Shown: one piece after another, positions 20,007 to 64,000 of the stretch
How the letters are laid out: each line of letters starts with the position of its first letter
Position numbering within the stretch: position 1 is the first letter of the stretch
Sequence record: OL856099
Length of the DNA: 64,000 nt
Origin: Shigella phage CWP003
Reading direction: 5' to 3' (one strand)
Translations under genes and position numbers: made by a program
Notes under the pieces: generated by a model
Database searches by the model: none
The model's input: only the letters and a program-made list of their open reading frames with translations
What the model was told of the DNA's origin: nothing

Positions 20007-22745
20007 ATGCAAAAGTTTGACACAAACCTGTTGCAAAACCTTAAGTGGATGCAGAACAACGCGCCAAACATCACATCTTTGGTTCAGAAGAAGAGTGACT
20101 GGTATGAGCGATATCAAGATCAGTTTTGGATTGACTGGTACAAGAACATATTCAACATTGATACTTGTGATGCAATGGGCATCTATATTTGGTGTGACAT
20201 CCTATGCATACCAAGGGATTTTGTTGACTTAAGCAACTATGAGCACAACTGGGCGTTTGGACCCACACGCGACAACTTCGAAGGGCCGGACAATATCGGC
20301 GGCAACTTCTTTGGTGCTGGCGGAAAGGTTGTGAAAAACATCGAAGAAGCCCGCATCCTTCTGAAGCTTCGTTATCTGACGCTTACAAGTGATGGCCGCA
20401 TAGAAAGCATCAACCGTATGCTTAAGTGGATTTTCAACCGTGGAGAAGATTGGGATTACTCTTCATCGCGCTACGCATATGTGACAGATAATACTCAAGG
20501 CGCGGTGTCTTCTTCTGAAGCAACAAACGGCTCATTCCTTCTGTACGACTGGCAGGGGTCAACTGAGATTCAGCACGATTATAAACAAGTTCTTTTGAGC
20601 CACGGCAACAACGCAGGACTTACCATAAGTGGGGTGGCAGGGACCGTTTCGCGAATGGCACACCCAGACTGGTATTCATGGGGCAATGGTTCCGGCGCTG
20701 GTATTGTCGGCGGCGATACACGACAATATGGCGGCCCTGACTATTACGGCCAACTGTGCGGTGACTACCCAGGAGAGGCCATAGAGAATTTCGCCAACGC
20801 AGTACGGGTCATCAAGACCGCTTCCAGCGGCGAGCCTGTGTATTCTTTGGCCAATAATCCAAGCGCCCAATCTATTGCGCTTCCTTCTCAGGCTGGTGTC
20901 AACGTTTGCTATAGCTTCTACATAAAAGTGCTTTCTGAAAACGTGGCTTCTGTTTCCGTAACAGAGAACAGTGATGCATCGAGTAATGGAAAACTTTTCG
21001 ACCCAGTGACTGGGCAGTTCAATCTTGACTCTTCTTTGAGTTATTTCATCACAGGCAAGTTCGACGGTGTGAGAAGGGAATCAAACCGTGGTGGCATCAA
21101 GGCAATCGGCGGCGATTGGTACAGAATCTGGATTGTAGAGCAAACTGCAAACGCTACGGCTGGGGTGAAAACAAGCTTTTCAATTGAGTTGAAAGCAACT
21201 GCCGCTGGATCAACCCAGACTCGCGAATTGCCTGAAGGGTCTGATGCGCTTCTTTTTGGATACTCCATTTGTGTTTGCGACCCTGTTCAAAATCCTAATG
21301 GGCCTGAGCCTTATTTCTATGGGACTCAAAATCCTCCTGCAGATGGAACGGCAATCCTGTCTGTTACGGCAGGAACGCTCAACAACATATCTTGCGCAAA
21401 CGGTCCGTTGACCACAAGGGATGGCGTGGTAGGTGAATCATTCATGCAGCCTGGTTCATCGCTTGCATACTCTGGTTCAATCGGCGGCTACCCGTACCCA
21501 GGAAACGCAACATTGATTGCAGAGACAGATGGAATCAGACGCTCATGGAACGTTAGCCGACTGGACGGCGTACCGCCGCCGCCGACCGCTGACTATTACA
21601 TGGAATATGTCATCGGGCCTTATTTCGCCAACAACTTATCCGACAACTTTAAGACGCTAGTTGGCGACAGGAATGAAGGATTCTTGCCAGCAAATGCCGG
21701 AATACGTTGGCAGCTTTACCAAGAAGTCGCAGACTTATCTGATATTGATTTGACCGTCAGCAACATAACAGACACGCGAGTAGGATTCGAAACGGAAGGT
21801 GTCGCATGGATTAACACTGACGGCATCATCAGAGTTGGCGGCATAAACGAGTGGCCGTTGAACAACTTCAAAGGTGTTATACGACAGCTTGAATCTTTGA
21901 AAGGTGTGAACCAAGTTATCGACGGCGCACTTGTCAACGACTATTCAATCTCAAAAGCATCAAGAGATGACTTTGGTCGTGAAATCCCACGTGCTGCGAT
22001 CACAAACTACTGGCGATACACACAGCCCAATGACGGCACATCTTTTGGAAATATCGTCAAGGACGGAGATAACACGGTAACGGCGACGCCAATCAGCGGT
22101 GTGCCCAACCAGTTCCCATCATTCAAGCTTTCCGCTACAATAGGGACTGTGCCAGCGTCCGGCTATGCACGTGCTGTACTTGCTACTAAATACACTGGCA
22201 ACCTGACTGGTCCTTTGTCATTTATCGCAATAGTTAAAAACAACACGGTAAACGGTCAAAAACTTTTCGTAACCGTACCGGATGGTATGGGCGGCTATAT
22301 CCCTAAATTCTACAGCATAGGCGCAGGTGATTTGCAACGCATCGAAATTGACCTTGCCGCTGAGATTGTTGCAGGAACGACTTGGGATGGTTCGACAGGT
22401 GGAATCAGCATTGGTTTGATATCAGGGAAAGACTTGCCGACCGAAGTCGGTACGACTCTTGAACTTGATATTTTAAGCTTGATGCTTGTTTCTGGTAATA
22501 CGATGAATGCGCTTGCGATTTCAACAAGCGAAGACTTTGCAAAGAAAACTGCAACTTCTATATACATCAAAAACCCAGGGTCACTGGCGACTGGAGTTCA
22601 ATTGATAGCTTCGAATGGGGATGTTGTAGCGACAGTAAACTTTCCAAGAAGTGCTGCTGGCGGTTATGTTTCAAGCATGAATATAACTGACTCAACTGGT
22701 GATTGGGCATCAACCCTTTTATCAAAAATTAAATACATCGTGTAG
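20007..22745 (+). CDS. large tail fibre / baseplate wedge protein
   Basis: GAGGAA RBS; 912 aa; position. Confidence 0.45.
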   Translation: MQKFDTNLLQNLKWMQNNAPNITSLVQKKSDWYERYQDQFWIDWYKNIFNIDTCDAMGIYIWCDILCIPRDFVDLSNYEHNWAFGPTRDNFEGPDNIGGNFFGAGGKVVKNIEEARILLKLRYLTLTSDGRIESINRMLKWIFNRGEDWDYSSSRYAYVTDNTQGAVSSSEATNGSFLLYDWQGSTEIQHDYKQVLLSHGNNAGLTISGVAGTVSRMAHPDWYSWGNGSGAGIVGGDTRQYGGPDYYGQLCGDYPGEAIENFANAVRVIKTASSGEPVYSLANNPSAQSIALPSQAGVNVCYSFYIKVLSENVASVSVTENSDASSNGKLFDPVTGQFNLDSSLSYFITGKFDGVRRESNRGGIKAIGGDWYRIWIVEQTANATAGVKTSFSIELKATAAGSTQTRELPEGSDALLFGYSICVCDPVQNPNGPEPYFYGTQNPPADGTAILSVTAGTLNNISCANGPLTTRDGVVGESFMQPGSSLAYSGSIGGYPYPGNATLIAETDGIRRSWNVSRLDGVPPPPTADYYMEYVIGPYFANNLSDNFKTLVGDRNEGFLPANAGIRWQLYQEVADLSDIDLTVSNITDTRVGFETEGVAWINTDGIIRVGGINEWPLNNFKGVIRQLESLKGVNQVIDGALVNDYSISKASRDDFGREIPRAAITNYWRYTQPNDGTSFGNIVKDGDNTVTATPISGVPNQFPSFKLSATIGTVPASGYARAVLATKYTGNLTGPLSFIAIVKNNTVNGQKLFVTVPDGMGGYIPKFYSIGAGDLQRIEIDLAAEIVAGTTWDGSTGGISIGLISGKDLPTEVGTTLELDILSLMLVSGNTMNALAISTSEDFAKKTATSIYIKNPGSLATGVQLIASNGDVVATVNFPRSAAGGYVSSMNITDSTGDWASTLLSKIKYIV

Positions 22746-22755
22746 AGGAACGGCA

Positions 22756-24540
22756 ATGCCAACACTTATTAACAGACCTTTCGCGCAAAGCGGTGATGTA
22801 TCCGTGGTGCCGGATGCAAGCCCAAGCGGTTACGTGAACTTCCAGCGCGGCTACACACCTGACTATGCGCTTGCCCTGGAGGCTGGAAACGTCGCCGCGA
22901 AAGCTGTTGAGCGCGAATCCATGAACTGGTTGCTGAATTTGATTACAGACAACCTTATGTTTATTCAAGATCATGGCGCTCAACAATATTTCTCTTCTGA
23001 CTTGAAGCCGGATGGATACCCGAAAAACGCCATCGTAGTAAGCAACTCTGGAACGCCTTCAGCGCCTGAGTGGCGCATCTTTCAAAGCGTGGTCGACGGC
23101 AACACAAGCGCCGTACCAGCCAACGGAGAAACGGAATCTTGGCAGGAATTAACGCTGCCCAGCGAAGCGCGAAAATACATTCCGATGCCTGCTGGCGGCG
23201 ATGCGCAAAACCCGTACTTTGTTCGTGGATTGATTTCAAGTTTTGTGGACTTCGATAATATCACGACTTCCACAACTATCGTGATTCAATCCGATTCCGT
23301 CGCCGCTCTGTGCTCTAACATCCCGAATGCGGTTGGCGCAACGAAGGTTGCAGGTCGGCTGCAGGTCTGCGCTTGGCAGGTCGATGCGCAGACCTTTGCC
23401 TTGCAGCAATATACATCAATGAATGGCTATTTGTTTACTCGCTCTTATGCTTCTGGTGCTTGGAGTGCTTGGATTCAAAATGCCACTGTTCAAGACGTGC
23501 AAATTGGAACGCCGAATCTTGCATCAGGTAAAGGAGCGCAAGACATAATCCTTACCGTCCCAGCAGGTTATTCATGGCCTCCGTCAGCAGGTAGTCGCCT
23601 GACAATCGTCAATGATGTAACGACTACCGGACCTGTCACAGTGACCATTGGTGTAAACAAAGTTGCCGTTCTTGGATTCGACGGCAGCGAGTTGCCAGCT
23701 GGCGCTATCGTAGGCCTGTTGCCATTCACCATCATCTATGACGGCACTGTTTGGCGTCTTCTTCAGGCATTCGGCGCGGCGCAAATCGGCGTTGATGCTA
23801 CGGAGCCGCAGCAGTTTGTTACCAAAAGGCAACTTGACGCGCTTGCCGCGAAGTTGATTACCATGGGCGACGTATTCGAAGTTGGTGAGACTCGATTCCT
23901 TACCAACGGTACTAACCCAAACACTAAACTGGGCGCTTACGGTCAGGTATGGACAAGGTTGCCTGATAACATGGTGATTCGCACGTCTGGCACGGCGCGA
24001 AACGGTCTTGATACAGGCGGTGCAGACTCTGTTACTCTTACCGCTGCAATGCTTCCACTCCACAATCACAGTGTGAACATTACCACGCGACAAAGTGGTC
24101 CATGGTCAAATACCACTGGAGACGCAGGCAACCATAACCATATAGGTGATACAAGCCAAAACGGTGCTCACTCTCACGGTATGGATGCGGCTGGCAACCA
24201 CCATCACGACAGTGGATGGGGCGAGGCGTTTGCCGACCAAGCTCGATACGGAGTTTATGATGGAACAAACAACAACATTGGAAGCAGAAAGACGGATTAT
24301 GATAACTACAAGTTCAACACTTCAACTAACGGCAACCATGTCCACAATATTCAATCTTCTGGTTCACACACCCATGGCTTGAATATTCAATTTTCCGGCA
24401 ATCACAGCCACAGCTATACACTTCCCGCTCACACTCACGATGTGGTCGGTAACACTGGCGATGCAGGACAGTCCGTGCCGACGGCTGTTGCTACTTTGCC
24501 GCGATACGTTGTTTTGAATGGCTGGTACAGAAGCGCATAA
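22756..24540 (+). CDS. tail fibre protein with C-terminal HxH repeats
   Basis: GAGGAA RBS before ATG 22756; C-terminus carries repeated H-x-H motifs (NHNHIG, HSHG, NHHHD, HVHN, HTHG, HSHS, HTHD) as in metal-binding fibre tips. Confidence 0.55.
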   Translation: MPTLINRPFAQSGDVSVVPDASPSGYVNFQRGYTPDYALALEAGNVAAKAVERESMNWLLNLITDNLMFIQDHGAQQYFSSDLKPDGYPKNAIVVSNSGTPSAPEWRIFQSVVDGNTSAVPANGETESWQELTLPSEARKYIPMPAGGDAQNPYFVRGLISSFVDFDNITTSTTIVIQSDSVAALCSNIPNAVGATKVAGRLQVCAWQVDAQTFALQQYTSMNGYLFTRSYASGAWSAWIQNATVQDVQIGTPNLASGKGAQDIILTVPAGYSWPPSAGSRLTIVNDVTTTGPVTVTIGVNKVAVLGFDGSELPAGAIVGLLPFTIIYDGTVWRLLQAFGAAQIGVDATEPQQFVTKRQLDALAAKLITMGDVFEVGETRFLTNGTNPNTKLGAYGQVWTRLPDNMVIRTSGTARNGLDTGGADSVTLTAAMLPLHNHSVNITTRQSGPWSNTTGDAGNHNHIGDTSQNGAHSHGMDAAGNHHHDSGWGEAFADQARYGVYDGTNNNIGSRKTDYDNYKFNTSTNGNHVHNIQSSGSHTHGLNIQFSGNHSHSYTLPAHTHDVVGNTGDAGQSVPTAVATLPRYVVLNGWYRSA

Positions 24541-24548
24541 GGTGATTT

Positions 24549-25193
24549 ATGATTAATGCAAACGTAATATCTAAAGGGACCGGATGCAGCATGGATGTTG
24601 CAGAGAAATGGGTGGACCATTTCAAGCAGGCTTGTGAGCACTACGGAATCAAAAGCAAGAATGCCATCGCGGCATTCCTTGCAAACGTAGGAGTAGAGAC
24701 GGGCAGCTTGAAGACCTTTGTGGAAAATCTCAACTACTCTGCTCAAGGTCTTGCCAATACATGGCCTAGTCGTTACAGCGTCAACGGTCGCTCTGGAAGT
24801 GCCCCGAACTCATTGGCCCTGTCGATTGCCCGTAAACCTGTGGAAATCGCCAATAATACATATGCAAACCGCATGGGCAACGGTTCAGTAGCATCTGGCG
24901 ACGGTTGGAAGTACCGTGGCCGTGGTGCCATTCAGCTGACTGGAAAGGCCAACTATGCGGAATATACGCGTCAATCAGGCTATGATGCATTGAACAATCC
25001 TGATATTCTGACTGAACCAAAATACATTGCTGACAGCGCGGCATGGTTCTTTAAGAATAGCGGCTGTATTCCTCTTGCGGATGCAGGAAATTTTGATTCA
25101 ACCGTTAAGCGGATTAACGGGGCCGCGCCGAACGCAGCAAACCACGGCGAGTTGCGAAGAAAGCGTTACAAGGATGCATTAGCAGTTATGTAA
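24549..25193 (+). CDS. endolysin, glycoside hydrolase family 19-like
   Basis: AAGGTGA RBS; motifs NVGVETGSL and YRGRGAIQLTGKANY characteristic of GH19 muramidases; no signal peptide. Confidence 0.7.
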   Translation: MINANVISKGTGCSMDVAEKWVDHFKQACEHYGIKSKNAIAAFLANVGVETGSLKTFVENLNYSAQGLANTWPSRYSVNGRSGSAPNSLALSIARKPVEIANNTYANRMGNGSVASGDGWKYRGRGAIQLTGKANYAEYTRQSGYDALNNPDILTEPKYIADSAAWFFKNSGCIPLADAGNFDSTVKRINGAAPNAANHGELRRKRYKDALAVM

Positions 25194-54781: not shown

Positions 54782-55314
54782 TGGGTAACAATGCAGGATG
54801 GGGCAAGCCGCGATACTCCAAACTTGCCCACTACTTTGACAATGGCGAACAAATCAGCTTGTGCGGCAAATTCAATAAGGGCAATACGGAGTTGACCGAC
54901 TCTCAAGAAATGGAGTCAAGTTTAACAATTGGTGATTGCGCGAAGTGTCGCAAGGCATTATATGAATTATTAACTCTAAAGGGATTGAAAGTTGCAAAAT
55001 CAAGGGATGAATGGGTCATGAACGTCTGTGAAGGGAATACAGAATTAATGGATGAATGGCTAAAGACGGATGCGGTCAATGCCATATTCAAAAGGAATTA
55101 TAAGACCTGTATGCGTTACAAGATGAAAGATGATATTATTTTTATGGTATTATCTTATTCAAGGAACACAACGGACGTCAAAAAGCTTCGACAATATCGC
55201 CACAAGGTCATGTGTGAATTGCGCCGTTTAGGAGTGATTGTTGATAATAATGTCATTAAAACGGAGTTGGAGAAGCGGGATAAAAGGAATGGTGACTGGA
55301 AGGTCAGCGGATAA
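54778..55314 (+). CDS. hypothetical protein (last gene of early operon)
   Basis: GTGA overlap; followed by 850-bp non-coding region. Confidence 0.45.
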   Translation: MMGNNAGWGKPRYSKLAHYFDNGEQISLCGKFNKGNTELTDSQEMESSLTIGDCAKCRKALYELLTLKGLKVAKSRDEWVMNVCEGNTELMDEWLKTDAVNAIFKRNYKTCMRYKMKDDIIFMVLSYSRNTTDVKKLRQYRHKVMCELRRLGVIVDNNVIKTELEKRDKRNGDWKVSG

Positions 55315-55580
55315 AGAACACTGTATTGCGTGTTTTGAATAATGGGATGTGTACAATTGGTCGCTTTACGCGGCCTTTTGTTGTTGTTTGGGTCGTGTTT
55401 CGTGATTGAATAATTATGAGGCGATGTTTTATTTATTAATTGTGCGGAAATATTTAGAAATATATATAGACAGGATTGTTAATATTTTAATAGTGTATGG
55501 CTATCGGTCCGTGGTGTTTGTTAGGAATTATCTATGGATTGAAATTTTAGTGTCGTGAAACGTGGTGTTTGAACATATTT

Positions 55581-55937
55581 GATACGCGTAAAATACGGCT
55601 AAAAATTAAGCGTATCATGGCTGCAGGCCGCGCCGTTCCTGGATTCCTCTTTTCCAAATTGGTACACCCTTACGTCATGATACGTCATGGTTTTTTATCC
55701 GTATCAGTGTACAGCCCTTGCCGCGCCTGGCTTGTACATTAATCTTACGGATGATACGGATAAAACTGGGCATCGTTATATATATAATTTGAAAAATTAA
55801 TTAACTCCATTTTGAATTAATTTAAATTAATTTTTTTCTACATCCTCATACTTATGTTAATTTATATATAACGTATTATCCGTAAGATATAAGTAAAAAC
55901 AAAGACTTGCGGCAATACGGATGATACGTCATGATAC
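55581..55937. repeat. second iteron-like array (GATACGGAT / ATCCGTATC units, GTCATGATACGTCATG variants) around an AT-rich core at 55770-55870
   Basis: CTTACGGATGATACGGATAAAAC 55744-55766 and TTTATCCGTATCA 55696-55708 closely match segments of the 3271-3531 array; AT-rich core shares ATTAATTTAAA(T)TA. Confidence 0.6.
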
Positions 55938-56103
55938 GCTTCAACCAGCCAGTAGCGGCTAAGTCATTGATTTGCATAACAAGCGGCGAAAGGGATGGAC
56001 TTCTTTTATACGTATCAAACAGTACACCACGCACCACGGTCCGATATTCATTCAGCACTATGATTTATGTACGTTTACAGCCAATTTGAACATCAATCTG
56101 CAC

Positions 56104-56132
56104 TTGAATATAATGTTCAATCATTATATAAT
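56104..56132 (+). promoter_or_regulatory. sigma70-type promoter for gene 56167
   Basis: TTGAAT-17-TATAAT. Confidence 0.45.
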
Positions 56133-56144
56133 TCACACTATTAA

Positions 56145-56168
56145 TTTGCACTATGGGATTTGCACTAT
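56145..56168 (+). promoter_or_regulatory. two tandem TTTGCACTAT motifs between -10 element and start codon (operator-like)
   Basis: copies at 56145-56154 and 56159-56168, the second overlapping ATG 56167. Confidence 0.45.
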
Positions 56169-56640
56169 GAGTCAAGATTATGTAGCAATGCCTGAAGACT
56201 TTGAAGACCCGCGATTTGCAGAGCATAATCAGGCATTATTCGATGAGTTCATCGACCTTGTTATTCAGGGCCATGACATGCGCGCAGCTTTTGCACTAGT
56301 ATTTGGCATGGAGGTTGCGACCGATAACTACACTGGCCAGCGAATCCTGTGCACTCAGCGCAATCCGTACTACAAGATGCGCTACAAAAAGCGTATGGAA
56401 GAGATGCCATTGAAGGAATTGTGGAGCGTAAAGAGTTCCATTCACAATTTAGTGAAGCTTGTGCGTGATCCAGAAGTCGCAGCATCAGCCAAGCTTAATG
56501 CCATTCGTGAACTGAATATCATCTACGGCATTACGATGATTGATGAAAACGGCAATAGTAAAATGGGCCGTTCCATGGATGATTTCTACAAGGATTTTGG
56601 AGAGGCGGCCAAAGAGGGTGAGCAATTCTCCCGCCACTAG
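56167..56640 (+). CDS. hypothetical protein (157 aa)
   Basis: ATG at 56167 within table ORF 55972-56640; GGGA 8 nt upstream; promoter at 56104. Confidence 0.45.
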   Translation: MSQDYVAMPEDFEDPRFAEHNQALFDEFIDLVIQGHDMRAAFALVFGMEVATDNYTGQRILCTQRNPYYKMRYKKRMEEMPLKELWSVKSSIHNLVKLVRDPEVAASAKLNAIRELNIIYGITMIDENGNSKMGRSMDDFYKDFGEAAKEGEQFSRH

Positions 56641-56644
56641 CCAA

Positions 56645-57038
56645 TTTGCACTATAAAACGGCCCTAGAACACATTTTCTCCACTTCTAGGGCCATCGGTA
56701 ATACGACGGGGAAGGCTGCAACCATAAACGCGTTAGAAAGTGTATTATTATAAGTCATCTTTTAGTCACTTTACGTAACAATTTACGACCTTCCGCCGTC
56801 CAGTCGAACGACTCCACCAGCAAATTTGCACTATAACCTAAGACGATGCGCCCTTTCTCGTTATCTACCCGCCAACAAGTCTCAAATAGCATTCGATTTG
56901 CACTATTAACTATCGCCGCAACGCGCGTTGGGTAAGCGCAATTTGCACTATGGTCATAAAGGGATAAGGTGCGACCACTTCCGATGGACAACGTAGCGAT
57001 GAGAATAAGCGTATTCATAAGCCACCAATTTGCACTAT
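56645..57038. repeat. array of five (A)ATTTGCACTAT motifs in about 400 bp
   Basis: copies at 56645, 56825, 56897, 56942, 57029; variants at 57334, 57344, 57613. Confidence 0.6.
56660..56693 (+). terminator. perfect 10-bp stem hairpin after gene 56167 (terminator or RNA element)
   Basis: GGCCCTAGAA, 14-nt loop, TTCTAGGGCC; no U-tract. Confidence 0.35.
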
Positions 57039-57039
57039 G

Positions 57040-57061
57040 AAAAGCGACCCCGAAGGGCCGC
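57040..57061 (-). terminator. rho-independent terminator for minus-strand gene 57069-57695
   Basis: on minus strand GCGGCCC-UUCG-GGGUCGC hairpin followed by UUUU. Confidence 0.5.
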
Positions 57062-57068
57062 CATTCGA

Positions 57069-57695
57069 TTAGATAATCTGGAAGGTGTAGGACTTGTTGC
57101 CGAACTCGAAGTTCAAGCGTCCCGCTTCTTTAAGCTTCATGCGGAAGCGAATGTGCTTGCTATCCGGTAAGCCCAGCGCGGCGAACGCTACGCGGACTGA
57201 TTTGAACTCGCCTACACCCTCGACCATAACGGCGTTACGGGTGAGACGCTTTTGCGCCACTTCCTTGTTATCCCAACTTTTTGCAATACCTTCGCTATTC
57301 GAACGGCGATGGGAAGGAGTTCCATTTTGCACTACGCAACTTGCACTATCGTTTAGGCCGCTTTTAACGAAGGCTTCATACTCTTCGTCGGTCATCGCGT
57401 CGAGTTCTTCCTGGGTCGGCTCGGCCTTTTTGACGACCGCACGCGCCTTATGCGTTTTTACATCGCTGGACACTTCCTCGCGCGGCTTCGCGTCTGGGAT
57501 GGGCGATTCGTTGGACGGCTCATCGAGCGCGTTTAAGGACTCGATTAACGCGATTACGCGAGTCTCGGCGGTCCGGCGGTCCGCAAACTTCTTAATCGGT
57601 TTTGAGCCGGAATTTGCATTATAGAATGCAACGAGGTCGGCGGTCTTAGTTGCGATAACGTCGCCGCTAGTAGAAAAGCGATTTAAGCTAACCAT
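57069..57695 (-). CDS. hypothetical protein (island gene)
   Basis: AGGAG RBS 8 nt before ATG; CpG-rich codon usage distinct from rest of window. Confidence 0.5.
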   Translation of the reverse strand: MVSLNRFSTSGDVIATKTADLVAFYNANSGSKPIKKFADRRTAETRVIALIESLNALDEPSNESPIPDAKPREEVSSDVKTHKARAVVKKAEPTQEELDAMTDEEYEAFVKSGLNDSASCVVQNGTPSHRRSNSEGIAKSWDNKEVAQKRLTRNAVMVEGVGEFKSVRVAFAALGLPDSKHIRFRMKLKEAGRLNFEFGNKSYTFQII

Positions 57696-57775
57696 AATAA
57701 ACTCCTATTTGTTAGGGCGCTAGGCGCGAAAGAATTTTATTAAAGCGCCGCGCACGACGCTCTAAAAATCCTCTC

Positions 57776-58090
57776 TTACTCTTCGTCGTCTTCGATTAAT
57801 TCGAGGGCGAAGGCGTAAGCTTTGCTATCGTAATTAACTAAAACGGCGAGTTCGAACTCGTTAATAAACGCCGTTTTACCGCATAAATTTAATTCCGCAT
57901 CGACTTCGAAGAATCCGTTTTCGTCGCGCTCTAAGCGAGAAGCAGCGAGTTGCTCGATTACCGTCGCGTCGTTAATTTCTTCGCCTAAGCGAACGCCGGA
58001 GAATTTCGCGAGAATTTCGCCGTAAGTAAGCGTAACGCCCTGGACTTCGGCGGTTGCGTTTTCGAGGGTAAAGCGGGTAACGATAGCCAT
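57776..58090 (-). CDS. small acidic protein (island gene)
   Basis: AGGAG RBS; 104 aa, Asp/Glu-rich; own sigma70-type promoter. Confidence 0.5.
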   Translation of the reverse strand: MAIVTRFTLENATAEVQGVTLTYGEILAKFSGVRLGEEINDATVIEQLAASRLERDENGFFEVDAELNLCGKTAFINEFELAVLVNYDSKAYAFALELIEDDEE

Positions 58091-58158
58091 AACAAACTCC
58101 TAGTTGGGAGAGGCGTTAACGACCTATTCGTTAACTCATCCCGTCCCGATATGAGTAC

Positions 58159-58186
58159 ATTATAATATAGTGTAGAAAAAAGTAAA
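58159..58186 (-). promoter_or_regulatory. sigma70-type promoter (minus strand) for 57776 gene
   Basis: reverse complement reads GTGCTTTACT-16-TATAAT. Confidence 0.5.
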
Positions 58187-58230
58187 GCACTTTTTCGATA
58201 AAAATGCGATAAATTATTTTATCTTTTTTC

Positions 58231-58258
58231 TTTACTTCTTCGTACACTCGCGTATACT
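58231..58258 (+). promoter_or_regulatory. sigma70-type promoter for 58315 gene
   Basis: TTTACT-16-TATACT within CTTTACTTCTTCGTACACT box. Confidence 0.5.
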
Positions 58259-58314
58259 TGTTTATATCGAGACGGGCGATGGCCCTTTCTTCTACTAGCA
58301 TCGGGAGCTTTATT

Positions 58315-58617
58315 ATGACTACTTTAATCTCTTCCATCCTTACTTACGACGAAGACCGCTTAACCGTTCGCTCTCTTATCGCCGCCGTTAACGCGGAACT
58401 CGAAACTAGCATTATTAAAGCGCGCGCCGTCGCCTTCGTCGGCCTTTCCTTCGACGATATTAAGTATGCAGAGTATAGCGCCATTCGCGTCGTTACTACC
58501 GACGATAACGCCGTTACCCTTATCGAGACGGTTACGCCTCGCGGCGAAGCGTTAATTATCGTCGAGTATATCGACGTAGAAGGCGATAAAGCTTATAAAT
58601 ATTTTATCGCAGAATAA
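58315..58617 (+). CDS. small acidic protein (island gene)
   Basis: GGGAG RBS 7 nt before ATG 58315; 100 aa. Confidence 0.5.
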   Translation: MTTLISSILTYDEDRLTVRSLIAAVNAELETSIIKARAVAFVGLSFDDIKYAEYSAIRVVTTDDNAVTLIETVTPRGEALIIVEYIDVEGDKAYKYFIAE

Positions 58618-58629
58618 CGAAAAAAGTGC

Positions 58630-58658
58630 TTTACTTCTTCGTACACTAAGACTATAAT
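58630..58658 (+). promoter_or_regulatory. sigma70-type promoter for 58726 gene
   Basis: TTTACT-17-TATAAT in same CTTTACTTCTTCGTACACT box; conserved leader TTTATATCGAGA. Confidence 0.55.
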
Positions 58659-58725
58659 GTTTTATATCGAGAGGGGATGAGGTAGCGAATAGGTCGCTAC
58701 CCTCCCGACTAACTAGGAGAATATT

Positions 58726-59016
58726 ATGATTACTTTAGCCGCTATCCGTTCCGCTCGCGTCGAAACTTCCGAAAACTCTAACGTATTTGGCGAAAAACTT
58801 AAAAACGTTTATCTCTTTAACGTAGATGCGACTATCGAAGAGCTTCATAGTCCTATCGATTTTAGCGAATTTACGGAACTCGAAGAGGAAGATATTACTA
58901 CCTTCCGCGTTACTATCGAAGGTAAGGTTTATTTTGCTACGGAGTTCGGCGGCGAATATCTCGCGGTATCCGAAGGCGAAGGCCGTTACTCTTTCTTTAA
59001 AATCGTCTCCTTATAA
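58726..59016 (+). CDS. small acidic protein (island gene)
   Basis: AGGAG RBS; 96 aa, Glu-rich; terminator downstream. Confidence 0.5.
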   Translation: MITLAAIRSARVETSENSNVFGEKLKNVYLFNVDATIEELHSPIDFSEFTELEEEDITTFRVTIEGKVYFATEFGGEYLAVSEGEGRYSFFKIVSL

Positions 59017-59035
59017 TACCCTTCCGTTACTAATA

Positions 59036-59060
59036 GGCCGCGCTTAGTCGCGGCTTTTCT
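59036..59060 (+). terminator. rho-independent terminator
   Basis: GCCGCG-CTTAGT-CGCGGC hairpin followed by TTTT. Confidence 0.5.
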
Positions 59061-59531
59061 TCGTCCCTATCTCGATGCGCTTCTCCGCGAAAACTCCTTT
59101 ATCCTTCCCTTCTTCGTCGCATAATCTTCGTCGAGATGCGCCTTAGTTCGCATAACAGGTATTACGTTAAATGGAGAACATCGCGTAAGTCCTTGTTTTA
59201 TATAGACACCTATATCGGACCGTTAGGGAGGGTCGCGTAAGTCGTTGTTTTATAAAGGCGCAAAACTTTCCCTTCGTTCCGAACTAAAACGAGAAATATG
59301 CCGACCCTTCGCCCGAAAATAGTACGCGTGCGAAATTACCGACATCTAGAATAATCCCCACCGATATTATCCTGCGCGCAATCATTCGCTTTCGAATCAT
59401 TATGCTTCATATTATTATGCGTCGAATCATTAGCTTTCGAATTGTAACGCTGGAAACTGTAACGGCGATTGATTATTGCGTTCGTGTGGTTTTTAGGGCA
59501 TGGGTCTTTTGGTGCGTTTTGGTACTTGATG

Positions 59532-59644
59532 AAATTTGCAGTACACTAATCAAAATACGACACATTTGGTCCACTAACTTTTCAAAGAAAAAGTCCTAGA
59601 CAGTACCGTACTATTTTGTGCCCACAGTAAATTTGCAGTACACT
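59532..59644. repeat. pair of perfect 16-bp direct repeats AAATTTGCAGTACACT
   Basis: copies at 59532-59547 and 59629-59644; related to the TTTGCACTAT family. Confidence 0.55.
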
Positions 59645-59713
59645 CCTGCGCGGCAGGCAAAAGAAAGGGCCGCCACAGCGACCCACGATTCACGGTTAAA
59701 TCAACAACACCCA

Positions 59714-60094
59714 TTATTCACTCTTATGGGCATCACCAAAGCCATCCGCAATCTGGCTGATCAATGATTCAATGGACACAGTTTTACCAATTGATCGAGC
59801 GGTAATAGCAAGCATATTATCAATCAAACCATGATTAGATGCATATGTTCCAGGTTTTGAATCATCTTCAGAACAGCCAAAAAGCTGATCGCGAAGACTT
59901 TCAAGAGAACGCTCAATATTTTCCAGCTTCTCTTCTAAATCGGATTGGCGACGTAAAACCCATGTTAAGTCGCGGCTGCCGACTTCCAACCCATCAGAAT
60001 CGCAAGCTGGAACGTCAATTTTGATGCTGCCACCAAAGGCCATTCCGCTGCCTTTAGCATATGTATTGTGAATAGAATCATTTTTATTTGACAT
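59714..60094 (-). CDS. hypothetical protein
   Basis: start taken at internal ATG (MSNKNDS) at 60094 of table ORF 59714-60124. Confidence 0.4.
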   Translation of the reverse strand: MSNKNDSIHNTYAKGSGMAFGGSIKIDVPACDSDGLEVGSRDLTWVLRRQSDLEEKLENIERSLESLRDQLFGCSEDDSKPGTYASNHGLIDNMLAITARSIGKTVSIESLISQIADGFGDAHKSE

Positions 60095-60167
60095 ATCATT
60101 ACCTTTCATGAGGGTGATTAACAATAACTATAATAAAGCCGCATATCGCGGCATTCAAATCGGTTTA

Positions 60168-60416
60168 TTAATTGTAACGATTGGATTCATCAATCGATAC
60201 CAACTGTGCTGGGTCGCCGGATACGGTCGAGCCAATGATGCCCATCTGCTGAAAGAACTCTGAATAAACTTCCTTCCAGTACTTACGCGCTGCTTTCTGG
60301 GCTTGTCCTTTTCGCTTGAAGCTTTTACCTTGAAAGATGAAACGGTCGCTTGCCGCTCGATACTCCACCACACCTTCCAGCCATTGTAAGAATGCTACTG
60401 ATTCATTTTGATTCAT
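60168..60416 (-). CDS. hypothetical small protein
   Basis: ORF in minus-strand operon. Confidence 0.4.
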   Translation of the reverse strand: MNQNESVAFLQWLEGVVEYRAASDRFIFQGKSFKRKGQAQKAARKYWKEVYSEFFQQMGIIGSTVSGDPAQLVSIDESNRYN

Positions 60417-60423
60417 GTTAACC

Positions 60424-60819
60424 TCAACATTTTAATAAGAAAGCACCCAACCAACTTTCCTCAACCTCGCGGCCAGTAGCCACACGGTCGGTTTTTGCTA
60501 TGGGTCTGGATTCGCCGCAGGGTAATCCGTCTTGTAGTTGTGTACTATTGCCAATTCTCACCAGAACCTTTCCATCAGGGTCGATATAAGCGCGACAACC
60601 CATGATTTCGAGTCGTTGTAGACACTGGCGAATCGTTTTCAGCCTTTCACCGGACCGGATAGAGCGCGGTCGCGACCGCTGACCATTCTTATTCACTGTC
60701 CGCTTCACAACCGGAATCTCATTGGTGCGCTGCGCTTTCGGTCGGTAGTAGGCTTCTTCGCCAGGAGTCGCACCTGGCGTCAATTCGCGCTTGAGAGCCT
60801 TTTCAATATCGATGATCAT
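60424..60819 (-). CDS. hypothetical basic protein
   Basis: start at ATG 60819 (MIIDIEK) overlapping upstream small ORF stop. Confidence 0.4.
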   Translation of the reverse strand: MIIDIEKALKRELTPGATPGEEAYYRPKAQRTNEIPVVKRTVNKNGQRSRPRSIRSGERLKTIRQCLQRLEIMGCRAYIDPDGKVLVRIGNSTQLQDGLPCGESRPIAKTDRVATGREVEESWLGAFLLKC

Positions 60820-60821
60820 GA

Positions 60822-60920
60822 TTATGCCGCTGCAGCGTAAACAATTGCATAAGCGATACCAAACAGCGCGGCAATACATACCGTGCCCCAAAATGCAAAG
60901 CGCCGTGATTCTTTATCCAT
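60822..60920 (-). CDS. small membrane peptide (32 aa)
   Basis: MDKESRRFAFWGTVCIAALFGIAYAIVYAAAA; GGTGGA RBS; not in ORF table. Confidence 0.3.
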   Translation of the reverse strand: MDKESRRFAFWGTVCIAALFGIAYAIVYAAAA

Positions 60921-61122
60921 TATCCACCGCCCCAATATCCTTCAAGAACTTGTGCAAGTCGCCTTTCTTATTAAGCTTTTGCATAGTTTTGATATCATCA
61001 AGTGATATGCCTTGATCGCTTTGTTGTTTGTCAATGCAGACAATGCCGCCTTTCTTAGCCTTGATTGTCATGCCTTTGGCTTCAATACTTTTTACGAAAT
61101 CGGACAATAATTTAATTTCCAT
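60913..61122 (-). CDS. hypothetical small protein
   Basis: ATG at 61122 overlaps upstream stop (TAATG). Confidence 0.4.
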   Translation of the reverse strand: MEIKLLSDFVKSIEAKGMTIKAKKGGIVCIDKQQSDQGISLDDIKTMQKLNKKGDLHKFLKDIGAVDNG

Positions 61123-61412
61123 TAGAATCTTCTCCCACATCCATAAAAATTAAACACTAATTTTGCCATGTCATCTTGTGAAATCACGTTGTAGTGTTTA
61201 GGCAAATTGCTTTCTGACAATGCCTTCTGGGCTTCTTCTTCTGTCTCAAACAAAGGGATGCACCAATTAACTGCGTCGCCAGAATCATTGCTATCAACTT
61301 GTTTCAAGAAAACCAAGCGGTTGTCTTCAGGATCAATTCCGCAAATCACATATTTAGGCAGCGCCTTTGCTTTTTGGGCCTTATCAATGTCTTCAAATTT
61401 CATTTCATTCAC
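61122..61412 (-). CDS. hypothetical small acidic protein
   Basis: follows tail fibre gene on minus strand. Confidence 0.4.
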   Translation of the reverse strand: MNEMKFEDIDKAQKAKALPKYVICGIDPEDNRLVFLKQVDSNDSGDAVNWCIPLFETEEEAQKALSESNLPKHYNVISQDDMAKLVFNFYGCGRRF

Positions 61413-61486
61413 CTCACTTGTTAACGTATAATGAGTATAACTTAATAGCGCATAAAGTAAAGGCGCTTTTCAGCGCCTTGAGTGAA

Positions 61487-63820
61487 TTATTTCGCTGCTT
61501 TTAGCGCGGCTATCTCTGCCTCTAGTGACTCGACCTTCTTCATCAACTCCTGCACCACGTGCATCGTATCCAAAAGCATAGGTGTTGTGTCAAGTTCTTT
61601 TTGTTCAACAATTTCTCCTGGATTGCTGCCAACATACTTACGCGTCTTAACATATAAAGGCTCAACGACCTCTGCTTGCTGTGCAATAATGCCATGCCGA
61701 ACTCGATTTTGTTCGTCATTGTCATAAATGAACTCTACAAATTCCAGTCCTTTAATATTAGAGTATGATTTATCAACTCCAACAGGGGCGATGCCGTGTT
61801 TTACACGTGAGTCAGAAGTGCCATTTTTTGTATAACTGAAGTTACCGTAATCGGTTGAACCATATATTTGACCATCAATGTCAAAAAAGTAACGGCAAAA
61901 TTTTCCGTTATCTCCACCGACTACCACGCAAGCTATGCCGAATGCATCATTCCCTGGTAAGTACATATGGTATCCAACCTTGGTCGGATAGCCATTAGGC
62001 TTGATTCCTCCGAGAGAATAGCCGCGCACCAGAGTATCTGATCCACTCGCGATGGCCACTCTGTCCATTCCGTTAGTGGTCAGGTTTGCTGCCGAGGCAT
62101 CCGTGATGCCATTCCATGTCCCCAAATTTGTATACATGCGGAATGGGTTGGTCTTCCCTGACTGTCGGAAGTCAACTGTTCCATCCTCATAAAACTTATA
62201 AGAATGTTTTGAAGCCCCTTCTGCCTCTACGACGGCACAACTAGAAGAACCCCATGAAGAACTTGAGTACAGGCGTGCAAACTGTGATGAACTAGGATTG
62301 CTATATTTTGACTCTACTTTCCCGCCGACAACCACAGTGCCTGCCACTGGTGCGCTTGAGTCTGCATTTATTACGCTCCAAGACGTATTCGCGGCAACAA
62401 ATCCACCCGATGCACGAATAACCCAGACTCCTACGAAGTTACGCGGAACAATTTCCGCTGCTGAACGACCATAAACAGGACTGCAGCGAGAGGCGTCAAA
62501 GTTTGTTTGTATGAATCTTGACCCAGAGCCTGCTGCCGCAGGAGAGTCACCCGAAGTTATTGACTGAAAAGCACCATTAGTCGCCACTTGGCTTGGCGCA
62601 GAAGCCAATGTCACCATTGTGTGCGGCGCTGCGTAAGTTATATTTGGAGCGCCTGATTCAGACACAACCCCGTTGGACGATGAATTCCCGCCGTCACCCC
62701 TTCCAAATAAGGCCTGTATGGAACCAGTCTGCACCCCGTTGCGGTCTGGCACACGGAATGTCGTTGTTCCGTTACCCAGAGAATACTTGCCGCGTTTTGC
62801 TGGGTTGGCAAGCCAGTCAGCATCGGCAATAGGTGACAGCATCTGAGCATAAGCCCAAAGTTCAGGCCAATCCGCTCGATTCAATAACTGTCCATCAGAA
62901 ACGACTTCATACGGTTGAATATATGCACGACTGTCGCGTAAGTGGAAGTCACCAACGCCATAGTTCATGACACCGTTCATGCTTGGGCCAACGGTGCCTG
63001 TGTTCACTAAGTTCTCAACCCAACGCTTAGTCGCAGCATCATAATCGTTTACCGGATCACCAGCAAGCGGAGTCGACCCTTGTGGACGGATGTTTAGCCA
63101 AGCCTGAGCGTTGTCTGCTGAGCCAGTACCGCCCATGGAAGTCGGGACAATGTTTTGATCAGCGACTGCGCCAAATCCAAAAGCGGACTTCATACCCTGA
63201 ATGGTAGTTTGCCCTGTCCCACCGTTTTCTACAGGGATTACATCCTTGTCGGTGTATATTTGCACCCAATTAGACCAAGCCGATGATGCAGCGGTGTATC
63301 TTCTTTGGTGCAGCGTGTTATTGGAATAAGTTGTATATCTTTGGATGCAACTTTCTGTGGCAACGCCTGTTTGTAGCACCTCAAGAACTCCCGCTTGTGC
63401 CACAGGGTAGTTAAGGGGTGCCGATGCGCCAGCATTTGCTGATTGGTGATATTGACCAAACCATGAACCAGTCAACGCATTAAGGTTGATGCCTGAGGGA
63501 ATCTCTCCAAAGTTTCGGACAGTACCCGTCAAAGTCGCAGCAGTTGTTCGAATGGAAAGTAAATCACCAGCTGCCCATGCACGCGCTTCAGTTCCTTCCT
63601 GTTCACGCTGCACGGTCAGGACGTTTCCAACCACGGCTGTTACTGTGACTATTTCAAATTGGAGGCCTGTTGCAGCGTCGACGATTGTCGCCACTACACG
63701 CTCGTTTGCGCCCAAGGTCGGAAAGCCTGACCCTGAGCGAATTGTGATTGTGGTGTCTGAAGTCGTCGTTGGTTGAGCCAGCGCGACCTCAAAGTTGTTT
63801 TTGAATATTAGCCTTGGCAT
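61487..63820 (-). CDS. tail fibre / tailspike with C-terminal peptidase-S74-like intramolecular chaperone domain
   Basis: C-terminal SDSRVKHGIAPV...RHGIIAQQAEVVEPLYV...coiled-coil end matches the Ser-Lys autoproteolytic chaperone domain of phage fibres. Confidence 0.6.
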   Translation of the reverse strand: MPRLIFKNNFEVALAQPTTTSDTTITIRSGSGFPTLGANERVVATIVDAATGLQFEIVTVTAVVGNVLTVQREQEGTEARAWAAGDLLSIRTTAATLTGTVRNFGEIPSGINLNALTGSWFGQYHQSANAGASAPLNYPVAQAGVLEVLQTGVATESCIQRYTTYSNNTLHQRRYTAASSAWSNWVQIYTDKDVIPVENGGTGQTTIQGMKSAFGFGAVADQNIVPTSMGGTGSADNAQAWLNIRPQGSTPLAGDPVNDYDAATKRWVENLVNTGTVGPSMNGVMNYGVGDFHLRDSRAYIQPYEVVSDGQLLNRADWPELWAYAQMLSPIADADWLANPAKRGKYSLGNGTTTFRVPDRNGVQTGSIQALFGRGDGGNSSSNGVVSESGAPNITYAAPHTMVTLASAPSQVATNGAFQSITSGDSPAAAGSGSRFIQTNFDASRCSPVYGRSAAEIVPRNFVGVWVIRASGGFVAANTSWSVINADSSAPVAGTVVVGGKVESKYSNPSSSQFARLYSSSSWGSSSCAVVEAEGASKHSYKFYEDGTVDFRQSGKTNPFRMYTNLGTWNGITDASAANLTTNGMDRVAIASGSDTLVRGYSLGGIKPNGYPTKVGYHMYLPGNDAFGIACVVVGGDNGKFCRYFFDIDGQIYGSTDYGNFSYTKNGTSDSRVKHGIAPVGVDKSYSNIKGLEFVEFIYDNDEQNRVRHGIIAQQAEVVEPLYVKTRKYVGSNPGEIVEQKELDTTPMLLDTMHVVQELMKKVESLEAEIAALKAAK

Positions 63821-64000
63821 TTTACGGTCCTCGTTTTGTCGACAACCGTATTATAGCCTTAATTTCTTTTGAGAGGAATATGACGGTTGCTGTCATTATT
63901 TGGTTTAATAATGAGCATAAAAACGATTAGAAAGATGATGGCTGATATACTTAATTCAATCAGCGCGGCCTGAGATATGGATTGATCTTCATGATACTGC

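Follow-up and report, generated by a model that had tools for sequence, protein, structure and literature searches.

The closest described counterparts of the fibre reported here are the tail fibres of Wifcevirus, myophages of E. coli. Humolli et al. (2025) described Bas99 Gp114 as a "T-shaped" fibre whose N-terminus is a baseplate anchor and whose C-terminus is a chaperone, with a Gp12-like RBD1 and a T5-like RBD2 in between. Fibres of this kind (Bas99 Gp114, vB_Eco4M-7 gp27, ECML-117 gp24 and WFH/WFC gp013) are 763-785 aa long and are encoded at the same locus, which lies between the left terminal repeat and terL. Thus, a dual-RBD fibre with a chaperone is already known. In the literature, the O16 O-antigen is the receptor of Bas98-101 and O157 is the receptor of vB_Eco4M-7. 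A related arrangement is found in LtfA of the T5-like phage DT57C (PDB 8HQZ chain d), a 1076-aa protein of a siphovirus tail whose T5-type N-terminus inserts in the collar formed by LtfC. On hosts making O-antigen, DT57C requires its LTFs.

We analysed 64,000 nucleotides of Shigella phage CWP003 (OL856099), referred to below as the window. Near its far end, the minus strand encodes a fibre precursor of 777 aa and 82.7 kDa (61487..63820), with a GAGGA RBS 5' of its ATG; all features of this locus described below are on the same strand. The window is 100% identical to OZ035737.1 (Wifcevirus WFH), and WFH, Bas99 and other relatives show 86-94% nucleotide identity with at least 75% of the region covered. 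Bas99 (ManiWeber) Gp114 (91.8% amino acid identity), vB_Eco4M-7 gp27 and ECML-117 gp24 are orthologues of the fibre; orthology and synteny of the locus extend over 12 relatives, and the protein matches the tail fibre family PHROG 6921 (E=7.7e-209). The window fibre shares the N-terminal anchor, dual RBDs and S74 chaperone of the Wifcevirus T-shaped fibres and differs from them only in its combination of alleles. We are confident that this T-shaped tail fibre is the variable, receptor-binding one of a myophage belonging to the Wifcevirus species WFH, and we consider the account given here as a whole to be highly probable. The initial annotation had predicted a second receptor-binding protein at a separate locus. 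This is supported, the fibre being encoded apart from the tail module, and the ORF was found exactly as it had been given. The region it had called plus-strand fibres (20007-24540) was partly renamed: 22699-24540 matches tail-fibre families, but 20007-22745 encodes a DUF2612 baseplate-type structural protein.

The first 102 residues (63515..63820) are conserved across the genus, with 87-98% column identity. Residues 4-97 resemble the N-terminus of PDB 8jov_1, a 'putative tail fiber protein', and several tail-fibre PHROGs match residues 4-107; the AF2 model is poor over this domain. Following PMC11990801, this segment is presumably the anchor that attaches the fibre to the baseplate. It is followed by a pyocin-knob-like shaft domain (aa 103-200, 63221..63514), which is the first variable module and which matches R2 pyocin fibres. 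Knobs are known from R-type pyocins (PA0620; PDB 6CL6, 6CT8) and from Pbunavirus Pa193 gp47 (9B45), whereas the window fibre has a single knob within a longer mosaic fibre, and bears no relation to the R-type pyocin foot in its distal binding domains.

The second variable module is the RBD1 region (aa 201-483, 62372..63220). Here aa 201-380 and 461-480 form a conserved scaffold, which holds a variable insert (aa 381-460, nt 62441-62680), and the invariant columns of the fibre cluster in aa 240-376. The 'Gp12-like' label of RBD1 comes from PMC11990801 and from the Mansfield record, where the region is annotated as SSF88874; the monomer AF2 model, which is poor (mean pLDDT 51.7), did not confirm a Gp12-like fold. 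RBD1 aligns residue for residue with DT57C LtfA, at near-identity over about aa 233-400. The third variable module is RBD2, the hypervariable distal tip (aa 484-668, 61817..62371). The order of RBD1, RBD2 and chaperone is the same in the window fibre and LtfA, and the block matches over aa 233-775 (E=3e-132). However, the tips differ (about 45% overall), and the window fibre has another anchor, one for a myovirus baseplate. Only the N-terminus of LtfA was modelled in PDB 8HQZ, so that the homologous part lies outside the solved structure.

The C-terminal 109 residues (aa 669-777, 12.2 kDa, 61490..61816) are a Peptidase_S74-type intramolecular chaperone according to profile, dyad and fold. PF13884 matches aa 669-721 with E=1.1e-7 and 32.4 bits (gathering score 22). 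The SDSRVK motif begins at S669, GIIAQ occupies aa 710-714 and a coiled coil covers aa 745-776. The catalytic Ser669 (codon 61814-61816) and Lys674 (codon 61799-61801) are invariant in 50 homologues, and fold and profile searches matched the MyRF ICA, endosialidase, GA-1 and S16 chaperones. An S74 annotation is already present in relatives' records. Thus, the chaperone proposed in the initial annotation was upheld. Its description of the fibre as endosialidase-type applies to this domain only, as no sialidase or other enzyme domain was found in the protein. K1F endoNF, the GA-1 neck appendage and MyRF ICA share the profile, the Ser-Lys dyad, the fold and the terminal coiled coil with the window chaperone, whereas its passenger is a fibre that has binding domains in place of a sialidase beta-propeller or triple beta-helix enzyme. 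Endosialidases are the proteins on which S74 chaperones were first described, and the SP13 record carries the name 'endo-N-acetylneuraminidase', which could be read as pointing to an enzymatic tailspike or endosialidase. Yet searches of Pfam, NCBIfam and PHROGs found no sialidase, pectate-lyase or other hydrolase domain and returned fibre modules throughout, the fold matches are to fibre knobs and chaperones, and the SP13 name is best explained by transfer from the chaperone domain. We give an enzymatic function almost no credence. The L-shaped fibre T5 pb1, which also carries an intramolecular chaperone (PDB 4UW8), differs in that its tip has no detectable sequence similarity to the window fibre, the structural match is weak and includes the chaperone, and it lacks a lateral Gp12-like RBD1.

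Published mass spectrometry of CsCl-purified phage identifies orthologues of the fibre as abundant virion proteins. The orthologue is the top-scoring protein, with 34 peptides and 80% coverage for vB_Eco4M-7 gp27, and 18 peptides were found for ECML-117 gp24. In vB_Eco4M-7, peptides from the chaperone (aa 682-776) were abundant as well, for example IEVLEAEIAALK with 223 PSMs, which means that some of the chaperone polypeptide, at least, is purified together with virions. These peptides, like those of the g1 orthologue discussed below, are a modest new point. Autocleavage at T668/S669 and release of the chaperone are what the dyad would predict, and in endosialidases and T5 pb1 the chaperone leaves after cleavage. 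It might instead remain on the mature fibre and contribute to the structure of the distal tip, whether it is never cleaved or is held non-covalently after cleavage, for there were six chaperone peptides whose PSM counts were as high as any from the mature part. We consider retention doubtful. It would depart from the precedent of the family, and the invariance of the Ser-Lys dyad in the 50 homologues argues that catalysis has been kept. In addition, the vB_Eco4M-7 preparation also held helicase, endolysin and maturation protease, so soluble contaminants were present. Phage with HiBiT at the C-terminus of gp27 gave no luminescence with non-host strains at 1e7 PFU/ml, which suggests that the tag is off the virions, although this assay is limited by sensitivity and is a weak point.

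The three variable modules assort independently, and the flanks on both sides of the ORF are conserved. The window fibre combines the knob of WFH, the RBD1 insert of Bas98-101 and FEC19, and the tip of WFH, WFC and Bas99. Its knob is 96% identical to the WFH type and 47% identical to the Bas99 type. Conversely, its RBD1 insert shows only 36% identity to the WFH type and 97.5-100% identity to Bas98, Bas99, Bas100, Bas101 and FEC19. The four BASEL isolates that depend on O16 all share this insert. The apparent associations of the RBD1 insert with O16 dependence and of one RBD2 family with O157 hosts are modest new points that draw on 8 phages, with three of the four O157 phages assigned by isolation host only. 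Which RBD binds which glycan is inferred. The tip and chaperone of Seuratvirus VogelGryff are 90% identical at the nucleotide level, and fibre modules also occur in T5-like and phiEco32-like phages, indicating transfer across morphotypes.

Downstream of the fibre, the minus strand carries six small ORFs, one of them for a 32-aa membrane peptide, just as the initial annotation had listed them. We chose their starts from RBS positions and relatives' annotation and refer to them as g1 to g6. The first, g1 (61122..61403), encodes an acidic 93-aa ORFan (pI 4.9). Among 5.8 billion proteins, almost all of its homologues are on ~68-kb Wifcevirus-like contigs, and it occurs as two alleles (88-97% versus 62-64% identity). 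Its orthologue in CsCl-purified phage, vB_Eco4M-7_26 (gp26), was detected by 5 peptides with 89 PSMs and 65% coverage. As g1 directly follows the fibre and gp26 scored as high (254) as baseplate proteins do, g1 could be a virion-associated partner of the fibre, such as an adaptor, cap or assembly factor, and not an unrelated small gene; Bas98, Bas101 and vB_Eco4M-7 carry the divergent allele. We regard this as unlikely. The g1 allele tracks no single fibre module, for Mansfield, SP13 and FEC19 have unrelated tips but the more common allele, and ECML-117 has no g1. The sample that held the orthologue also held non-structural proteins, and searches with g1 (AF2 pLDDT 65) gave no fold or family match.

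The remaining genes are likewise small. The basic 69-aa product of g2 (60913..61122) is 99-100% identical where present but absent at 5 of 10 loci; it matches PHROG 5649, of unknown function (E=2.6e-8), and two peptides of its orthologue PI34_gp23 were found by mass spectrometry. The single-pass hydrophobic membrane peptide of 32 aa is encoded by g3 (60822..60920; maximum Kyte-Doolittle 2.23), which is present in all 10 relatives, with its N-terminal 21-32 aa conserved. The basic 131-aa product of g4 (60424..60819; pI 9.8) is a genus-restricted ORFan: it is 95-100% identical in 26 of 28 Wifcevirus records and 93% and 66% identical in the other two, it was not found outside these 28 records among 50,697 phage records, and only 6 clusters, four on ~68-kb contigs, were found among 5.8 billion proteins. 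The 82-aa basic product of g5 (60168..60416) has a variable C-terminus and weak matches to PHROGs of unknown function. Finally, g6 (59714..60094) encodes an acidic, genus-restricted ORFan of 126 aa with a central helical, coiled-coil-like segment. It is 82-100% identical in 27 of 28 Wifcevirus records and 58% identical in ECO71P1, and was found nowhere else among the 50,697 phage records; an exhaustive HMMER search added a single homologue of 102 aa on a 530-bp contig. Matches of g6 to TPR proteins were repeat artefacts.

The fibre and the small genes are adjacent, co-oriented, apart from the tail module and beside a compositionally odd region; moreover, g1 comes in two alleles and g2 in only some relatives. 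The initial annotation had suggested a modular host-range cassette, in which fibre and small genes would be mobile and exchanged together. This is very unlikely and already largely refuted. How similar the small genes are (85-100% identity) does not follow how similar the fibres are (56-92%), and the small genes are 85-100% identical even beside fibres of 56-70%; in Mansfield the fibre is 57% identical, but g4 is 97% and g5 99% identical. Whereas g1, g4 and g6 are confined to Wifcevirus, the fibre modules are common to many other phage groups. The fibre and g1 are also set apart by a near-invariant spacer of 83 nt, in which a hairpin and a promoter-like site are found. Lastly, the adjoining 'atypical island' is actually a 3.7-kb direct terminal repeat. 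What stands is the modularity inside the fibre: judged by sequence comparison, the exchangeable units are segments within the fibre ORF.

We propose a model that combines the ORF, domains, dyad, mosaicism and synteny observed here with what has been published on orthologues, namely their presence in virions and the dependence on O-antigen. Three fibre chains would form a trimer that is anchored on the baseplate by the conserved aa 1-102, followed by the pyocin-knob-like shaft (aa 103-200). RBD1 would be a lateral Gp12-like domain that contacts O-antigen through its variable insert, and RBD2 (aa 484-668) would be the distal tip. The S74-type chaperone may nucleate folding of the tip trimer, after which the Ser669/Lys674 dyad would cut it off between T668 and S669, leaving a mature fibre of 668 aa and 70.4 kDa. 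Host range would evolve by recombination, with the knob, the RBD1 insert and the RBD2 plus chaperone swapped independently between near-invariant flanks, and these swaps may extend to unrelated sipho- and podophages. The six downstream genes would be conserved, genus-specific small proteins outside the exchangeable unit, and their own promoter may drive transcription at least partly.

The transcription of the cluster is a prediction: promoters and terminators were called as consensus matches, whose count in the region is not above shuffled expectation. The genes had been described as a separate minus-strand operon. They are on the minus strand, but the cluster starts upstream of the fibre and is interrupted by hairpins and promoter-like sites, so one simple operon should not be assumed. 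A gene for a 113-aa membrane protein (orthologues Bas99_0110 and Mansfield_015) ends 38 nt upstream of the fibre; the window edge cuts it, leaving just the 3' end (63859..64000). Four further small genes were read upstream of this gene in the record, up to five are annotated in relatives, and the cluster reaches the region divergent from terL. The 38-nt spacer (63821..63858) contains a TATAAT hexamer (63850-63855) and the GAGGA RBS, is essentially unchanged across 12 relatives apart from one C/T position, and may be a promoter without a -35 element. Enrichment of the motif GCTATAATAC in the window is only marginal, its count being reached in 4 of 100 shuffles, and its other five matches each have a mismatch.

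Hairpins with promoter-like signals are conserved at two places, one following the fibre and the other following g5. In the first, immediately past the fibre stop (feature 61434..61479), the hairpin AAGGCGCTGAAAAGCGCCTT (61460-61479, -13.6 kcal/mol) overlaps a sigma-70-like TTTACT-N16-TATACT site (61434-61461); 10 relatives have almost the same sequence over this 83-nt spacer, and WFH differs in the loop only. Between g5 and g6, the hairpin GCCGCGATATGCGGC followed by TTTATTATAG (60138..60152; -11.7 kcal/mol in context) overlaps a promoter-like site at 60130-60158. The cluster ends with a terminator-like hairpin, GGGTCGCTGTGGCGGCCC followed by a T-run (59667..59684). Its stem is conserved while its loop varies in relatives, and the WFH and WFC records list it as a terminator. 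The terminal repeat has its inner boundary about 160 nt away, at about 59509.

We found that the minus-strand open reading frame at 61487-63820 encodes a tail fibre of 777 amino acids with a C-terminal S74-type chaperone, exactly as the initial annotation had proposed; a GAGGA ribosome-binding site lies ahead of its start. In megablast, the region 59500-64000 showed a full-length 100% match to Wifcevirus WFH (OZ035737.1, 68,319 bp; window coordinates equal record coordinates minus 3081). Relatives covering at least 75% of the region were 86-94% identical at the nucleotide level and included vB_EcoM_WFH, ManiWeber (Bas99), WFC, FEC19, Bas98, Bas100, Bas101 and Ro157lw. The genus Wifcevirus comprises Escherichia coli myophages with genomes of 66-72 kb and direct terminal repeats of about 3.7 kb. 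The profile of PHROG 6921 (tail fibre) matched residues 23-777 (E=7.7e-209), and the best PDB-sequence match was chain d of 8hqz (residues 233-775, E=3e-132), which tblastn identified as LtfA of the T5-like phage DT57C. As the 8HQZ model covers only the N-terminus of LtfA, this match gives homology, but no solved structure, for the receptor-binding part of the fibre. The N-terminus of 8jov_1, a 439-residue tail fibre that likewise ends in an S74 domain, is similar to residues 4-97. The fibre shares 91.8% identity with its Bas99 counterpart and lies, as in its relatives, between terL and the terminal repeat; synteny extends to 12 relatives and the N-terminal anchor is conserved. It is an orthologue of the T-shaped Wifcevirus tail fibre with two receptor-binding domains (RBDs).

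Much of this is already published. According to Humolli et al. (2025; PMC11990801), a Wifcevirus phage has a conserved fibre, encoded in the tail locus, and a variable, ‘T-shaped’ fibre, Gp114 in Bas99. The latter is reported to have a domain for attachment at its N-terminus, two RBDs, of which RBD1 is Gp12-like and RBD2 T5-like, and an intramolecular chaperone at its C-terminus; the authors further report that horizontal transfer has distributed both RBDs over phage groups. An S74 annotation is also found in Table S1 of the vB_Eco4M-7 paper and, for WFC, in the sequence record. Since the architecture, the chaperone and the horizontal mobility are known, the feature adds no new kind of system, and the value of our analysis lies in the module map rather than in discovery. 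Host range in this genus, which is used against E. coli O157 and noted for very fast replication, depends mainly on the fibre locus. The claim of a second receptor-binding fibre at a separate locus agrees with this literature, and the initial annotation was partly correct in placing plus-strand fibres at 20007-24540. The conserved fibre is encoded at 22699-24540 (+) and is followed by a chitinase-like endolysin (24549-25193, +). The 912-residue protein encoded at 20007-22745 (+) has matches to DUF2612 and to a PHROG without assigned function, and looks like a baseplate structural protein.

The chaperone was identified by profile, motif and fold. Pfam Peptidase_S74 (PF13884) scored 32.4 bits at residues 669-721, above its gathering threshold of 22 (E=1.1e-7), and there were further profile matches to 7dc3, 6f45 and 3gud. 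The domain starts with a Ser-Lys dyad of the form S-x4-K (S669-D-S-R-V-K674), at the SDSRVK motif pointed out from the sequence alone. Both dyad residues, together with G710 and A713, are invariant in an alignment of 50 homologues (out of 887 matches, mostly on contigs of about 68 kb). The domain has a chaperone fold with a C-terminal trimerising helix, and a Foldseek search of the PDB with the AlphaFold2 (AF2) model of the fibre matched it to the MyRF ICA domain (E=6e-5, TM 0.6) and to the endosialidase chaperone 3gw6 (E=3e-3), in line with the suggestion of an endosialidase-type chaperone.

In the S74 family, which includes endoNF and T5 pb1, the chaperone templates the folding of the trimer and then cleaves itself off at the serine of the Ser-Lys dyad. 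By analogy, we infer that the fibre undergoes self-cleavage. A cut between T668 and S669 would produce a mature fibre of 668 residues (70.4 kDa) and a fragment of 109 residues (12.2 kDa).

By the initial annotation, absence of the protein from virions would have refuted its reading. The orthologues are present in them: in published mass spectrometry of CsCl-purified phage, no vB_Eco4M-7 protein scored higher than gp27, with 34 peptides covering 80% of it, and 18 peptides came from gp24 of ECML-117. When we mapped the published vB_Eco4M-7 peptides onto the 779-residue gp27, six fell inside the chaperone (residues 682-776), two of them with 187 and 223 peptide-spectrum matches (PSMs); the cleavage-junction peptide is too short to appear in these data. 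Thus, at least some chaperone polypeptide co-purifies with virions. It could be uncleaved, or cleaved but retained, or it could be a contaminant, and the same sample did contain helicase and endolysin. With non-host strains, no signal was obtained from phage whose gp27 was tagged C-terminally with HiBiT, which points, though only indirectly, against chaperone on virions. A possible reading is that the chaperone fragment remains virion-associated. In a later study, the best site for a HiBiT reporter was the C-terminus of gp27, which belongs to the fragment that cleavage is predicted to remove; for engineering, this is a warning that C-terminal tags are placed on the part predicted to be lost.

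A conservation profile computed among full-length homologues divides the fibre into segments. The anchor (residues 1-120) is conserved at 87-98%, the knob (121-200) at 42-67%, the RBD1 scaffold at 86-99% in its first part (201-380) and at 94% in its second (461-480), the RBD1 insert between them (381-460) at 32-64%, and RBD2 (501-668) at only 21-37%. The chaperone (669-777) shows intermediate conservation with a conserved terminal coiled coil. In the alignment of 50 homologues, invariant columns form a dense block at residues 240-376. The AF2 monomer was poor overall (mean pLDDT 51.7), being usable at residues 103-190, 484-550 and 595-777 and falling below pLDDT 50 over residues 191-483, which hold RBD1. 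For a Gp12-like RBD1 the support is indirect, coming from the SUPERFAMILY SSF88874 note in the Mansfield record, from a near-identical alignment with that region of DT57C LtfA and from the analysis by Humolli et al.; a Pfam search of the fibre gave no Collar match. The T5-like fold of RBD2 is likewise their assignment. In the Foldseek search, the modelled knob matched R2 pyocin fibres (E=2e-3), and, at the sequence level, the alignment profile picked out MyRF ICA and the pyocin knob, besides 3gud and the chaperone of S16 gp37. Chaperone and knob are therefore confirmed by three routes.

We also considered an enzymatic tailspike, either an endosialidase or another depolymerase. Searches of Pfam, NCBIfam and PHROGs found no glycosidase or lyase domain in the fibre, and the fold matches were to fibre knobs and chaperones, so this reading was rejected. 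The orthologous fibre of phage SP13 (4265-6574 of its locus, L011) is named ‘endo-N-acetylneuraminidase’, a name that probably derives from the S74 chaperone domain.

We compared the fibre segment by segment between the window allele and 12 relatives. The knob was 96% identical in WFH and 47% in Bas99. The RBD1 insert was 96-99% identical in Bas98, Bas99, Bas100, Bas101 and FEC19 and 28-36% in all others. RBD2, with which the chaperone co-varies, was 89-93% identical in Bas99, WFH and WFC and 8-18% in all others. The knob, the RBD1 insert and RBD2 therefore assort independently. The flanks of the gene, 38 nt upstream (a TATAAT hexamer and the ribosome-binding site) and 83 nt downstream, are almost invariant in all relatives, which favours exchange by homologous recombination. 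Modules also occur outside the genus. The tip and chaperone share 90% nucleotide identity with a gene of the Seuratvirus VogelGryff. Identity of the RBD1 insert is 94% in the T5-like phage fp01 and 69% in Bas32; phiEco32-like podophages, Bas87 and Bas91 among them, have it at about 75%. For engineering, the resulting map offers conserved flanks and three swap points. The AV128 fibre (665 residues; 4488-6485 of its locus, L012) aligns with the others over the first ~214 residues only; its entire distal part has been swapped for unrelated sequence, and the six small genes are conserved.

The distribution of the modules can be set beside serotype, a correlation that is not spelled out in the literature that we read. 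Four BASEL Wifcevirus isolates are O16-dependent, and all four carry the RBD1 insert of the window allele (97.5-100% identity), but two unrelated types of RBD2. Conversely, all four phages isolated on O157 (FEC19, ECML-117, vB_Eco4M-7 and Ro157lw) carry RBD2 domains of one family (59-80% pairwise identity) and four different RBD1 inserts; dependence on the O157 antigen has been demonstrated for vB_Eco4M-7 only, and O157 is the isolation host of the other three. From this small sample, which in part gives the isolation host only, we tentatively put forward the hypothesis that RBD1 and RBD2 are separate, freely reassorting determinants of serotype, a reading that we consider possible rather than probable. 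If so, the RBD1 insert of the window allele would bind an O16-type O-antigen and the RBD2 family of the O157-isolated phages would bind O157. This assignment is testable: FEC19 is predicted to be a dual O16/O157 phage, and the window phage to bind O16 through RBD1 together with a second glycan.

The fibre gene is followed on the minus strand by six small genes, the third of which encodes the 32-residue hydrophobic peptide already remarked on in the initial annotation. With starts placed to agree with ribosome-binding sites and with how relatives are annotated, the genes are g1 (61122-61403, 93 residues), g2 (60913-61122, 69 residues), g3 (60822-60920), g4 (60424-60819, 131 residues, pI 9.8), g5 (60168-60416, 82 residues) and g6 (59714-60094, 126 residues, pI 4.8). 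Bas98 and Bas99 (in Bas99, 4605-4794 of L001) carry an additional annotated ORF of 31 residues between g5 and g6. A 46-residue ORF at 59574-59714 was rejected as a gene, as it spans a terminator hairpin.

It had been proposed that the fibre and these genes form a modular host-range cassette. While the observation is confirmed and its interpretation as an S74 fibre supported, the cassette interpretation is not. Accessory genes of a cassette should co-vary or be transferred with the receptor-binding module, and this is not what we found: beside fibres with 56-92% identity the small genes keep 85-100%, and they do so in relatives with fibre identity of only 56-70%. The gene g2 is missing at 5 of 10 loci and g1 in ECML-117. 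Moreover, g1, g4 and g6 are missing outside Wifcevirus, while the fibre modules are widespread. A tblastn search of 50,697 phage records found g4 and g6 in each of the 28 Wifcevirus records and outside them in none, and among 5.8 billion proteins homologues of g1 and g4 occurred almost solely on Wifcevirus-like contigs. An exhaustive HMMER search with g6 returned one genuine homologue, of 102 residues, on a 530-bp contig without context; matches to TPR-repeat proteins were discarded as artefacts of repeat and helix composition, with six or seven stretches per protein matching the same 50 residues. The six proteins had nothing above threshold in Pfam, PHROGs or NCBIfam, and weak matches to RRM, ROF, SWT1, Nsp1 and RNA ligase lay far below curated cut-offs. 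The AF2 model of g1 (pLDDT 65) gave no PDB match with E <2 in Foldseek, and Rfam had no matches over 55000-64000. The genes g1-g6 are uncharacterised genus-specific ORFans rather than cassette cargo. The g1 orthologue gp26 was detected at 65% coverage in published mass spectrometry of purified vB_Eco4M-7 virions, and the g1 protein may stay associated with virions.

The minus-strand cluster starts well upstream of the fibre. A gene for a 113-residue membrane protein ends at 63859. Further upstream, this record has four more small genes, where relatives annotate up to five, reaching to the region divergent from terL; except for the 3' end of the 113-residue gene, these lie outside the window. 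The first gene of the cluster (76 residues; 9923-10320 of L003, beyond the window) adjoins terL and crosses the end of the OZ035737.1 record. Its orthologues are vB_Eco4M-7_32 and PI34_gp30, with a very high score in mass spectrometry of purified virions (390 PSMs), and its product may be virion-associated. Hairpins with T-rich tracts follow the fibre (61460-61479, overlapping a TTTACT-N16-TATACT site), g5 (60138-60152) and g6 (59667-59684), all on the minus strand; those after the fibre and g6 are conserved in relatives, differing in the loop alone. As these promoter and hairpin signals are consensus matches, not above the number expected from shuffled sequence, the transcription units are inferred. 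Two candidate promoter motifs were rejected: GCTATAATAC as a recurrent late promoter, its enrichment being marginal and due to one-mismatch matches, and AATTTGCAGTACACT as a dispersed promoter, having two local copies only. In Mansfield (~3840-3914 of L002), GTGGGTC is expanded in tandem in the terminator region downstream of g6.

The ‘atypical island’ beside the fibre proved to be the direct terminal repeat of about 3.7 kb, at 55809-59509. Both the direct terminal repeat predicted by PhageTerm for Mansfield (1-3673) and position 1 of WFH map there; thus, the ‘island’ is the genome end, with the fibre cluster as the first unique sequence inward of it. Within the repeat, an 11-mer, ATTTGCACTAT, occurs in seven exact and two one-mismatch copies on the same strand within 1.5 kb (56144-57622, +), over minus-strand ORFs. 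There is one further one-mismatch copy in the 64 kb, and none of 100 shuffles reached this count. The array looks like a set of iterons or binding sites, perhaps for packaging or an origin. Between the genes of the repeat and the cluster terminator, the non-coding stretch 59181-59644 is locally repetitive, with two copies of TCGCGTAAGTC(C/G)TTGTTTTATA at a distance of 52 nt and a 43-nt unit repeated at 45-nt spacing (59364-59451). The two copies of AATTTGCAGTACACT (59533 and 59630) flank the predicted inner boundary of the terminal repeat. Lastly, at 58088-58728 within the terminal repeat, a divergent gene pair is enclosed by long imperfect inverted repeats, of 65 nt with 77% complementarity and of 52 nt with 79%.
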